This document shows positions 3,291 through 18,005 of a stretch of 64,000 nucleotides of DNA, piece by piece (position 1 is the first letter of the stretch; every line of letters starts with the position of its first letter). Source of the stretch: a virus (Duplodnaviria > Caudoviricetes); IMG/VR virus record IMGVR_UViG_3300020049_006862, positions 1 through 64,000 of that record. One strand, given 5' to 3'. Under the pieces are notes generated by a model. That model searched no databases. It worked only from the letters and a program-made list of their open reading frames with translations, and was not told where the DNA came from. A program made the position numbers and the translations under genes.

Positions 3291-3809
3291 ATGACTAAAT
3301 TACTTCACTACGTATTCTTGAATGTCTTTCCTAGCTCTTGGTTAATCATGCTAACATTGGCGTCTGTTATTATTTATCCTACTTTCCCCGATTGGTTTAA
3401 GCTCGTGTGGGGCATGGTAGTAATAGTTCAGATCGTCATGATTATGCGTGTATGGGATCATATCGTACGCATGTGCTATGAAACCTTCAGAGGAGACTAT
3501 GAAGATAAAGAACTGAGAAACTATCATGAAAAACTTCCCAGAGTTAAAGACATGAAGTCTCAAGAATCTGGATACATATTTGCTTCGACAATATGGAAAG
3601 AAGAAGATTCATACTTCGTAAACCTGAATAGTAAAGTGTTTCAGAACAGTGCGGTGCGTGAAGCAGATTCAGTATTGATAGAAAAAATGCCGGACGGTTC
3701 TTACAAGATATGGCCTTCTTCTGACAAAGGAATGCATACCTCAGATACCAAAACTAGTTTCTTACAAGACCGCAGCATCTTTGTCAAGGTGACTGCAGCT
3801 CAAAAATAA
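3291..3809 (+). CDS. membrane protein
   Basis: two N-terminal TMs plus soluble domain. Confidence 0.65.
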   Translation: MTKLLHYVFLNVFPSSWLIMLTLASVIIYPTFPDWFKLVWGMVVIVQIVMIMRVWDHIVRMCYETFRGDYEDKELRNYHEKLPRVKDMKSQESGYIFASTIWKEEDSYFVNLNSKVFQNSAVREADSVLIEKMPDGSYKIWPSSDKGMHTSDTKTSFLQDRSIFVKVTAAQK

Positions 3810-4005
3810 AAGGTGATTTTTCAGAAGCATCGGTGTTTGACCCGTGACAACAAGCGGTTAGCCGATGCTTCATCTTTTCAAACTCTTAAATTGATCACCG
3901 AATCAGAGCATCACTGATTGAAAAAGCTGAAATTACTACATTTGGACTGATGCAGGACACTTCGTATGTATCAGAGGTTAAACTGATTAAATGAGTGTTT
4001 CTTTT

Positions 4006-4057
4006 TGTCTCCAAAGCCGTAAGGGGCTATAAGGTTCGAATCCTTGGGAGACATCCA
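4006..4057 (+). ncRNA. minimal tRNA-like RNA (acceptor stem + T arm + CCA, no D or anticodon arm)
   Basis: TGTCTCC/GGAGACA 7-bp stem, TAAGG-TTCGAAT-CCTTG T arm, T-CCA end. Confidence 0.7.
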
Positions 4058-4190
4058 ACCCTATCATTAGTCTTTATTGAGAGCCGGGAGGATACTTGTT
4101 TGTATCCTCTCAGGTTCTTTTTCTATTTACAAAAAGAAATTATACAAATAGTAAATTCATTTTATCATTATCAAAATAGTTCACGGCTAT

Positions 4191-4988
4191 ATGGTATATT
4201 TTCTTAACACAGAACTGGCTTCTGCTGCTATCGTAATAGAGAAAGCAGTAGCTGAAGGCCGGTCCATGGCCCTTCTTTTAGAAGGTGTGCCTGGATCAGG
4301 CAAGACTGCATTCGCTAAGTACCTGAGCCACCACTATGGTTGGCCATTGTTCAGGTACGATTGCAACGCAGAGAGTAACAGTGGACTCGTATACGCGTAT
4401 GATGTGGAGGGGATTATTCAGCAGAAGTCTGCCTTCTTAAAAGGCCCACTGTGGAATTGCTTTGAATCTGAAGGACCAGCAGTGATGTTGATTGATGAGG
4501 TAGATAAGAGTCCAAGGGATTTCGAAGCGTGGCTCTTGAGAACAGTAGACGAGCAGACATTCAGATCTCCTAATAACGACGAGATTGCGGCAAAAGCTCC
4601 GGTCGTGTTCATCCTATCATCTAATGCGCGCAGGAAATTGTCTCCTGAAATGGAACGACGATGCTTCAGATTTACCATCCCGTATCCTTCGAAGGAACTG
4701 TTACCTCAGATTGTGAAAGCTGAGCTCCCTTGGGGTGAGCCCAACCACGCTCTGATTGGATTGCTTTGTCGAATTGCTCTAAAGATGCAACCAAAGGTCG
4801 AGCCCGACCAGATGCCATCGCCTAAAGAAATCGCCTATGCGGCGGCTTCTTTCCCACTACTTAAGTCTCACAAGCAAATACAGGCTATATTCGTAGCTCA
4901 AATGCTCAAGGGAATGACCATGCAGGATTGCCACCAGATCATCCGAATGAGCGCTGTAAAGGCGATAGCGAAGGAGGCGTGGAAATAA
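4191..4988 (+). CDS. MoxR-like AAA+ ATPase
   Basis: Walker A GVPGSGKT, Walker B LIDEVDK, sensor SSN, Arg finger ERRC. Confidence 0.85.
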   Translation: MVYFLNTELASAAIVIEKAVAEGRSMALLLEGVPGSGKTAFAKYLSHHYGWPLFRYDCNAESNSGLVYAYDVEGIIQQKSAFLKGPLWNCFESEGPAVMLIDEVDKSPRDFEAWLLRTVDEQTFRSPNNDEIAAKAPVVFILSSNARRKLSPEMERRCFRFTIPYPSKELLPQIVKAELPWGEPNHALIGLLCRIALKMQPKVEPDQMPSPKEIAYAAASFPLLKSHKQIQAIFVAQMLKGMTMQDCHQIIRMSAVKAIAKEAWK

Positions 4989-5893
4989 TGGCAGAAAGAA
5001 AGCGAAGAAGTTCTAACCCTTTCTACGATTCATTTGGTAGCAAGAAAGATCTTATATTTACCTTGCAAAAAAAAGGTACATATAAAAGGGTTCTTGTAGA
5101 GGATGTACCACTGGATTATATGGGGAAACTGGTTGAGGGTATACCAAAGCCTATACGTGATTTAATGGCGCAGAACTGGAAATATATTGGATTAAGGAAA
5201 AAAGGCCCAGCCCCTTCTTCTAAATCTCAGCAAGCACCGGGAAAGAAAAGAGCTAAAGAGAATAAAGTACAGGACACTAAAACTATTGCCAAGTGGCAAG
5301 AAGAAGTATCTCAATGTGTAGAAATCCTGGAAAGTATCTTACAAGGTACGGGCAAACTTACCCGTATCATTGACAAGTATAATATTGACCCAGTAGGACT
5401 GGCTAAGTCCTATGTGCTAGGACAGAATCCTTTGGATTATTTATCCAGATGTATTGAACCGGTAAGAAGACCTACAATCATGATTTCTCCCGATACTTCG
5501 GGCTCATGTTCACAATTCTCTGAATTTACTCTTGGATTTGCTGAAACTCTAAAGAAGAAGTTCGATATCGAGTATGTCGAAAACTTCAACGGACTTATCA
5601 GACATGAGCTGATGCCTAAAACGCAGTTTGATCTTCTCGTCTACTTAGGTGACAAGGACATCTTGGTTGGGAAATGGATGAGACAGCAGGAAAAAGAAAT
5701 ATATACTTCTATGTATAATATGAAAGAGCACTTAATTGTGCTCGACAATGAAGGTGCTCGACATACTTCAAAACCTTTACATTCACGTAAACATTCCACA
5801 ACACGTCGTTGTTGGATTGAATTCGTGGATTTTAAAAAAGCAAAATCGTACGTCAAAGCTCTCGAGCTTGTACGGAAAAATATGTCCTCCTAG
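4988..5893 (+). CDS. vWA-domain partner of MoxR ATPase
   Basis: MIDAS-like DTSGS; TAATG-coupled to the ATPase. Confidence 0.65.
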   Translation: MAERKRRSSNPFYDSFGSKKDLIFTLQKKGTYKRVLVEDVPLDYMGKLVEGIPKPIRDLMAQNWKYIGLRKKGPAPSSKSQQAPGKKRAKENKVQDTKTIAKWQEEVSQCVEILESILQGTGKLTRIIDKYNIDPVGLAKSYVLGQNPLDYLSRCIEPVRRPTIMISPDTSGSCSQFSEFTLGFAETLKKKFDIEYVENFNGLIRHELMPKTQFDLLVYLGDKDILVGKWMRQQEKEIYTSMYNMKEHLIVLDNEGARHTSKPLHSRKHSTTRRCWIEFVDFKKAKSYVKALELVRKNMSS

Positions 5894-7718: not shown

Positions 7719-8056
7719 GGTACATTGTGTCGGCAGTCTTCTTATTTGTAATAGTAATATTACTCTTAAGCGCATCACCGCCGAGGAAGAAAAGAAAGAC
7801 ACCCTTTGATTGGGCGGCTTTTCATAGAGGTATGCAATCCTTTGAGAAACCGCCCTTTCTTGGGGTTACAGGTCAGTATCATTCCTATAAAATAGGGAAG
7901 GTATGGACAGGGTATGACGGATTAAGGTACATCTTTATTGCATCAAGCAATAAGAAGTATCTCGCTACTGCACTGGTGACTTACCGAGACGTAGAAATCG
8001 AGGAAATAATTAAGGAATGTGTTCCATTAACTTACACACCAATCTATCAGTTATGA
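7709..8056 (+). CDS. membrane-anchored hypothetical protein
   Basis: N-terminal TM; ATGA overlap with next gene. Confidence 0.6.
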   Translation: MALGYIVSAVFLFVIVILLLSASPPRKKRKTPFDWAAFHRGMQSFEKPPFLGVTGQYHSYKIGKVWTGYDGLRYIFIASSNKKYLATALVTYRDVEIEEIIKECVPLTYTPIYQL

Positions 8057-8415: not shown

Positions 8416-8489
8416 TGTTTCGTAGCTCAATTGGTAGAGCGCCCGCTTACAATGGGGGGAGGTTGCAGGTTCGATGCCTGTCGGAACAC
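8416..8489 (+). tRNA. tRNA-Val(UAC)-like with irregular anticodon stem (possible pseudo-tRNA)
   Basis: TGTTTCG/CGGAACA acceptor, GCTC-AATTGGTA-GAGC D arm, CTTACAA loop, GCAGG-TTCGATG-CCTGT T arm. Confidence 0.7.
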
Positions 8490-8507
8490 CTAAAATTTTT
8501 ATGAATT

Positions 8508-11257: not shown

Positions 11258-11305
11258 AGCTTTTTCTGGTCGGCAGAATAAGTGGTTCAATTCCGCTAAA
11301 AGCAC
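11258..11305 (+). ncRNA. minimal tRNA-like RNA (second example of the architecture)
   Basis: GCTTTT/AAAAGC stem, TCTG-gtcgg-CAGA hairpin, AGTGG-TTCAATT-CCGCT T arm. Confidence 0.55.
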
Positions 11306-14184: not shown

Positions 14185-14250
14185 GGAAAGGGTACTTGTG
14201 AATGGTCTAAAAAACCTTCTCGGAGTAGGGGTCGAATCCCGCCCTTTCCC
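14185..14250 (+). ncRNA. degenerate tRNA-like element
   Basis: GGAAAGG/CCTTTCC acceptor stem and GGG-GTCGAAT-CCC T-like arm; no anticodon stem. Confidence 0.4.
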
Positions 14251-17883: not shown

Positions 17884-18005
17884 TTGCAGTTTCACTTGGA
17901 AGTGGGGGTTCGAGCCCCTCCCGGACAGAAGAGCCGGTGGTGCAATGGTAGACGCCTGGCTAGCCAACATGCCAGTCCTAGAAAAAGTGAACTTGGTAAC
18001 TGCAA
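17884..18005 (+). ncRNA. circularly permuted tRNA-like RNA inside a long closing stem (Y RNA-like topology)
   Basis: T arm precedes closed acceptor-like hairpin and D-loop; closed by TTGCAGTT/AACTGCAA. Confidence 0.55.

Follow-up and report, generated by a model that had tools for sequence, protein, structure and literature searches.

The closest published analogue of the element described here is the t-element of plant mitochondria, with which it shares a non-canonical tRNA-like fold, a T-arm motif, an acceptor-like stem and a position adjacent to genes. T-elements are tRNA-like remnants carrying the motif GGTTCRANYCC; they direct the cuts that RNase P and RNase Z make at the ends of mRNAs, and once excised they may themselves be stable small RNAs (Forner et al. 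2007, PMC1920247). They are organellar, show no sequence homology to the phage element, generally keep fuller cloverleaf remnants and have non-encoded C residues added, whereas in the phage element (element 1) the CCA is encoded and an intrinsic-terminator-like hairpin comes next; cleavage has been shown for t-elements and is predicted here. The tRNA-like domain of tmRNA also combines an acceptor stem, a T arm and a CCA end with the lack of an anticodon arm; it has a D-loop analogue and is processed by RNase P, and its acceptor strands lie about 300 nt apart, with pseudoknots and the tag reading frame between them, whereas element 1 is closed by 17 nt located between acceptor strand and T arm. 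In the 3′ modules of the mascRNA/MALAT1 type a tRNA-like fold brings RNase P and RNase Z to a longer transcript, which they cut, but these modules are eukaryotic and the cloverleaf is kept, while the model acceptor/T-stem-loop substrates of RNase P are synthetic. The acceptor/T stack alone is sufficient for bacterial RNase P in vitro. The enzyme follows a ruler principle, by which it clamps the tRNA elbow and measures the stack of T-stem-loop and acceptor (PMC4919913), and it also uses the 3′ RCCA (PMC12710915). A large-scale survey of structured phage RNAs considers tRNA-like candidates in general terms only (PMC10690425), and no published anticodon-less tRNA mimic located between phage genes was found in the literature. 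We tentatively favour, at a probability somewhat short of even, that element 1 is a tRNA-derived top-half processing signal cut by host RNase P upstream of an ATPase cassette.

The window, that is, the whole stretch of DNA analysed (64,000 nt), covers the first 64 kb of an IMG/VR virus record that is 110,204 bp long and has an estimated completeness of 66%, and the genes in the first 42 kb of this record lie on the + strand. Element 1 is a 52-nt intergenic, sense-strand sequence (4006-4057, +) within the gap 3810-4190, which separates two + strand genes. It begins with the 5′ strand of an acceptor stem, TGTCTCC (4006-4012), followed by the linker AA, a 4-bp hairpin AGCC-GTAAGG-GGCT (4015-4028), a single A, the T arm TAAGG-TTCGAAT-CCTTG (4030-4046), the acceptor 3′ strand GGAGACA (4047-4053), the discriminator U73 (4054) and an encoded CCA (4055-4057). 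All 7 of the 7 acceptor pairs are Watson-Crick; of the five pairs in the T stem, one is U-G and G53-C61 is the closing pair. The loop, UUCGAAU, is the commonest T loop in bacteria. Since the 7-bp acceptor is stacked directly on the 5-bp T stem and the T loop is canonical, element 1 has the build of a mimic of the top half of tRNA. The three-way structure was the lowest-energy fold of the 52-mer alone (-18.7 kcal/mol, z -2.4), in agreement with the acceptor stem, hairpin, T arm and encoded CCA that the earlier note had read in these positions, and it was retained when the whole 383-nt gap was folded.

Element 1 is thus a structure that lacks the anticodon arm and also one further arm, D or variable: the hairpin 4015-4028 can be taken as D-arm-like, considering the GG at the end of its loop, or as variable-arm-like. 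When the 91 nt around element 1 were searched against Rfam, the only alignment was with tRNA-Sec (11.8 bits, E = 5), and it set the hairpin at the variable arm. This weak placement agrees with the possibility that element 1 is a non-functional relic of a phage tRNA, perhaps one with a long variable arm, from which a single deletion removed the D and anticodon arms (about positions 10-44). One such internal deletion does yield the observed order of acceptor, two linker bases, hairpin, one base and T arm. The integrity of the remainder speaks against decay, as none of the 12 stem pairs is broken and both T loop and CCA are undamaged, and we regard the relic as a serious rival, though on the doubtful side.

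The end of the acceptor also bears on whether element 1 could be a mini-tRNA that is aminoacylated on the strength of its acceptor-stem identity alone and serves a non-ribosomal use. It has the U73 discriminator and an intact NCCA, and U73 is the key acceptor determinant for E. coli CysRS acting on helix substrates. The pairs of the stem itself are less favourable: they are U1-A72, G2-C71 and U3-A70, with no G3:U70 and no G73 or A73 beside an extra arm, and we know of no anticodon-independent identity set that they match. No Fem-like or transferase gene lies nearby, and charging seems to us very improbable.

Other known classes were considered for the same 52 nt. As to a canonical tRNA (RF00005), neither ARAGORN nor Rfam made a tRNA call at element 1, and no cloverleaf or anticodon stem-loop was seen; no Rfam family was matched. 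A tmRNA was rejected, as there was no ARAGORN call and the element closes within 52 nt, with neither pseudoknots nor a tag ORF between its halves. Excision of element 1 as a tRNA mini-intron, with all combinations of start (3998-4012) and end (4046-4062), gave no ARAGORN tRNA. A copy of the 3′ end of a cellular tRNA, as in att sites, was also discarded: the 21-mer formed by the T arm and the acceptor 3′ strand was absent from 185,579 species genomes, and its 105 looser matches were all non-tRNA. As to the twister-sister ribozyme (RF02681), Rfam gave no match at E up to 10, and the cores GCAAGG, GUGCAAGCC-like and CGCUCAU were absent from element 1; these cores were also absent from the whole genome of this phage.

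That the stretch is coding, or that its fold is due to chance and there is no RNA element at all, we find hardly credible. An 85-codon ORF (3950-4207) does span element 1 if TGA is read as Trp (table 4), but under table 4 spurious overlapping ORFs of such length are common here (12 kb contain 68 with 60 aa or more), and this one runs through the 17-bp hairpin that follows the element and overlaps the start of the ATPase gene, in a gap that the JGI gene calls leave empty. The ORF is probably spurious and element 1 probably non-coding. With respect to chance, both strands of the full record were scanned for canonical T loops on a T stem paired 5/5 that had, within 30 nt, an acceptor partner pairing 7/7. 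The only match was the T arm of element 1, against an expectation of 0.1 per Markov-shuffled genome, a figure which ignores the all-Watson-Crick stem, the hairpin and the NCCA. A relaxed scan, in which G53-C61 was required and 6/7 acceptor pairs were allowed, gave 4 matches against 0.125 expected: element 1, a second element at 11258 (element 2), an uncalled UCA tRNA at 101330-101427 (-) and a module at 100546-100643 (-). Six canonical T arms were found in the genome, against 0.25 in the shuffles. The structure of element 1 is not due to chance, and because the counts of the scans exceed what is expected in shuffled genomes, elements 1 and 2 can both be taken as real tRNA-derived modules.

Element 2 (11258-11305, +) is a weaker top-half mimic that ends 34 nt 5′ of the start of ORF 11339, a gene for which no homologue was found among 5.8 billion proteins. 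It has the T arm AGTGG-TTCAATT-CCGCT (loop UUCAAUU) and the hairpin TCTG-GTCGG-CAGA, with GG in the loop. The recurrence of the architecture with unrelated sequence, which the earlier note had pointed out at these positions, is therefore statistically real, but the copy is imperfect, as only 6/7 acceptor pairs can form, the CCA is missing and the fold is lost in a 236-nt context. The looser copy proposed at 14185-14250 (+), element 3, did not hold up. It has an 8-bp closing stem, a GGTCGAATCC motif one base short of a T loop and a T stem of 3 pairs only; the covariance model built from elements 1 and 2 did not match it, and ARAGORN called it under relaxed or mitochondrial settings only. We treated element 3 as a different, degenerate tRNA-like stretch, outside the architecture of elements 1 and 2. 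The mini-intron reading was also applied to elements 2 and 3, and excision with varied end points gave no ARAGORN tRNA.

The notion that the architecture is maintained rather than decayed is plausible on the strength of the two copies, which are unrelated in sequence and share an unusual shape. For the relic this is a difficulty, since selection for the shape is a likelier cause than two independent deletions of one kind in elements 1 and 2, whose sequences differ; on the other side, the phage has both a tRNA with a long variable arm (101330-101427) and the degenerate element 3.

The phage is unusually rich in tRNA-like modules. The sole canonical tRNA called in the window lies at 8416-8490 (ARAGORN and Rfam); its anticodon is ACA, there is a G-G mismatch in the anticodon stem, position 73 is C and no CCA is encoded. 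This tRNA and element 1 have the pairs U1-A72, G2-C71 and U3-A70 in common. The tRNA at 101330-101427 (-) of the full record, outside the window, has a long extra arm, ends in G-CCA and carries the anticodon loop CUUCAAA (UCA, reading UGA); default ARAGORN missed it. Three canonical T arms lie outside the called tRNAs, at 17897-17913 of the window and at 100474-100505 (-) and 100546-100576 (-) of the full record.

This abundance of modules also counts in favour of the idea that element 1 may act in trans as a stable mini-tRNA, be it a decoy or sponge for host tRNA-targeting toxins or end-modifying defences, or a competitor for the CCA-adding enzyme or for enzymes that modify the T loop. The encoded CCA together with a dedicated terminator-like hairpin is the layout of a stand-alone tRNA gene, which is in its favour. 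However, an element without an anticodon arm cannot be a decoy for anticodon nucleases, the best-known of the tRNA-directed defences, and there is no evident partner protein. In the 110-kb record, searches for a CCA-adding enzyme, RtcB and an RNA ligase were all negative. We consider a role in trans improbable.

The flanks of element 1 are highly structured. From ORF 3291-3809 to the ATPase gene, the 383-nt gap has a fold z of -6.3 overall. A long terminator-like hairpin, read from the sequence (3822-3872, +), lies directly 3′ of the stop codon of ORF 3291-3809; it has a 10-bp closing stem, GAAGCATCGG/CCGATGCTTC, followed by ATCTTTTC, and is kept in the fold of 3810-4192. On the other side there is an intrinsic-terminator-like element (4081-4125, +), made up of a 17-bp hairpin (4081-4118), which starts 24 nt past the CCA, and a T run, with a terminator call at 4086-4111; this hairpin is also present in the fold of the gap. 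That element 1 has a terminator-like hairpin of its own is not what would be expected of a relic. Because such hairpins flank it on both sides, element 1 resembles its own small transcription unit more than a tag in a long mRNA, and it may lie outside any mRNA. The search for a promoter of element 1, by a sigma-70-type scan, by the Bacteroidetes-type TTTG/TAnnTTTG motif and by shared upstream words, gave no usable signal; a TAnnTTTG is present at 3937, and the motif is not enriched in the window.

Downstream, 134 nt after the end of element 1, starts the gene of a MoxR-like AAA ATPase (4191-4988, +), the first of a two-gene cassette (4191-5893) whose second member is a conserved partner gene (4928-5893, +). 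Just 5′ of start codons we noted an A-rich motif, T[AT]ACAAAAAGAAA (21 matches against 12.9 expected), which is found on the + strand at 4127, 6370, 7127, 8519, 8970, 11322, 20955 and 21698; with no evident Shine-Dalgarno, it corresponds to the Bacteroidota style of translation initiation region. A long gene-free gap also follows the partner gene, both in this phage (window 5894-6360) and in relatives (L004:1893-2621; L013:2007-2467), and it may hold a conserved structured RNA.

Homologues of element 1 were sought in IMG/VR and in the JGI metagenomes by pattern scans, in some of which the stems were left free for compensatory changes, and none was found. Two metagenome matches to the pattern turned out to be one full tRNA and one fragment, and a looser pattern had ordinary tRNAs among the matches listed. 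Megablast against phage records gave no close relative, and scans of IMG/VR by way of the ATPase and PolA returned nothing or distant loci only. The sole other copy of the locus is the near-identical JGI contig L011, with 17 differences in 11 kb and 0 in element 1; 12 of the 17 fall within 74 nt (window 5038-5111), at the start of the ATPase partner gene. With no homologue found, there was neither compensatory conservation of element 1 in relatives nor evidence of covariation, and this lack of conservation outside the phage agrees with a relic. The search by covariance model that the earlier note had proposed, carried out with the model from elements 1 and 2, was unproductive: it gave nothing further in this genome, and what it matched in other phage loci (0.85 Mb) was mostly inside annotated tRNAs.

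The model also found two anticodon-less acceptor/T-arm stubs in an unrelated 141-kb phage with terminal repeats (L055). One lies at 4130-4176, with the acceptor GCCGTAG/CTACGGC and then G-CCA, and the other at 7972-8021, also with a G-CCA end. With these two comparable stubs, the top-half type is not unique to the phage studied here. Both are located in a cluster of 14 tRNAs, a place where relics are expected, which again would suit that explanation. Separately, L243:1201-1290 (-) carries a tRNA-like gene that has GCA in the anticodon loop and whose long variable arm, GCC-GUAA-GGC, is unusual.

The PolA of the phage, which has no close relatives, is about 30% identical to those of crAss-like and other phages, and no PHROG family was matched by the ORFs near element 1. 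The ATPase cassette was used as an anchor for locating the equivalent slot in relatives. Homologues of the MoxR-like ATPase (45-63% identity) were found on short metagenome contigs, where the partner gene (37% identity) is always 3′ of the ATPase homologue. The slot upstream of the ATPase in these relatives, where the earlier note had considered that full tRNAs might lie, holds neither full tRNAs nor the mimic. Instead, a twister-sister-like ribozyme occupies it in L004/L005, L238, L006/L007, L008/L009 and L239, those with an ATPase 58-63% identical. The copies are located at L004:46-113, L238:73-140, L006:5673-5743, L008:388-454 and, in tandem, at L239:201-272 and 405-472. In the first four of these groups the Rfam twister-sister scores were 27-30.6 bits (E 0.004-0.04), below the gathering score of 34, and the two copies of L239 were identified by eye only. 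The cores GCAAGG, GUG[AC]AA and CGCUCAU are conserved, and the stems show compensatory changes, for example UCGG/CCGA, GCAG/CUGC and GCGG/CCGC. When the ribozymes were aligned by MAFFT and folded jointly with RNAalifold, the Rfam structure did not emerge (P1 was mis-registered), and the changes were cleanly compensatory in the inner hairpin only. The ribozymes end 110-137 nt 5′ of the ATPase start, and a strong hairpin comes next, in some cases with T runs.

Several of these ribozymes are directly 3′ of a Bacteroidetes-type promoter-like sequence, CTTG-N20-TAtaTTTG. A second conserved long hairpin was seen between ribozyme and ATPase start at L004:148-205 (also L008:~487-545 and L006:~5780-5845); it contains the motifs GCCGAAAGG ... 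AGAAGG ... TTAAA, has a z of -3.5 and belongs to no known family.

Not every relative has such a device. The slot of L010 and L240 holds a hairpin only and L013 has no gap, so a cleavage device at this place is not obligatory. In L014 there are 766 nt of unexplained non-coding sequence at the slot (L014:1-766), upstream of the ATPase homologue; this stretch is gene-free and GC-rich and gave no Rfam match, and its part at about 585-660 (TGTCGC ... GTGGAAAGCCCGA) resembles part of the twister-sister core.

Element 1 and the ribozymes of the relatives are alike in position, strand, spacing to the ATPase and the strong hairpin that comes next, and each would give a site-specific cut in RNA; in fold and chemistry they are unrelated, and the conserved cores of the ribozyme are lacking in element 1. 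Homology between them was considered and rejected, as the shared strings TTGTC.CC, AGCCG.AA.GG and GGTTCG are not significant (z about 2). Element 2 scores higher against the ribozymes, with 0.5% of genomic windows reaching its score, and we treated this likeness as chance after multiple tests. Judging by sequence, then, unrelated RNA devices, a tRNA mimic and a twister-sister-like ribozyme, appear to alternate at one locus, an observation that is new here. Twister-sister is described as cleaving itself at C^A in CGCUC^AU, with a 2′,3′-cyclic phosphate and a 5′-OH as the resulting ends (PMC5660989; PMC8782182).

The presence of a self-cleaving ribozyme in the slot of the relatives favours a processing role for element 1, because what two unrelated devices would have in common as output is a site-specific cut; it also argues against a relic, considering that the ribozyme looks functional. 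A second point in favour is that the canonical tRNA (8416-8490) and elements 2 and 3 each lie directly 5′ of a start codon, as in tRNA punctuation, and element 2, of the same build and unrelated sequence, is found just upstream of another early gene. The proposal of the earlier note, tags processed by host RNases that cut early transcripts, thus gains from the relatives as far as processing is concerned, while the terminator-like flanks are unlike those of a tag in a long early transcript.

The processing signal that we favour would work as follows. Element 1 would be transcribed from the + strand within a short unit whose end is set by the hairpin and T run 4081-4125. It would have retained the 12-bp coaxial helix of acceptor and T arm, the T loop and the encoded UCCA end, and its small hairpin could provide an elbow contact. 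Host RNase P would dock on the T-loop elbow and on the acceptor/T stack and cut between 4005 (U-1) and 4006; this cut is expected because element 1 has the features that RNase P reads, namely, U-1, a 7+5-bp stack, a canonical T loop and NCCA. The trailer would then be trimmed back to the encoded CCA, as in tRNA genes that encode it, and what is selected at this place 5′ of the MoxR-like ATPase cassette may be either the making of defined ends in the RNA or that of a small, stable RNA. In relatives, the same job would be done by the self-cleaving twister-sister ribozyme, whose functional equivalence we infer. It is conceivable, and we hold it rather unlikely, that the tRNA mimic and the twister-sister ribozyme are interchangeable cassettes, with selection acting on a cut RNA upstream of the ATPase and not on either RNA as such.

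If element 1 were merely the relic of a tRNA, the finding would be an ordinary one. If the two devices replace each other at one locus, mimic and ribozyme would inform each other as fixed-point cutters of transcripts, one self-contained and the other borrowing the RNase P of the host. We know of no established natural role for twister-sister ribozymes; were the two devices interchangeable, these ribozymes and the top-half mimics of phages would gain a shared role that can be tested. RNA processing signals would then be a layer that the annotation of phage genomes has missed.
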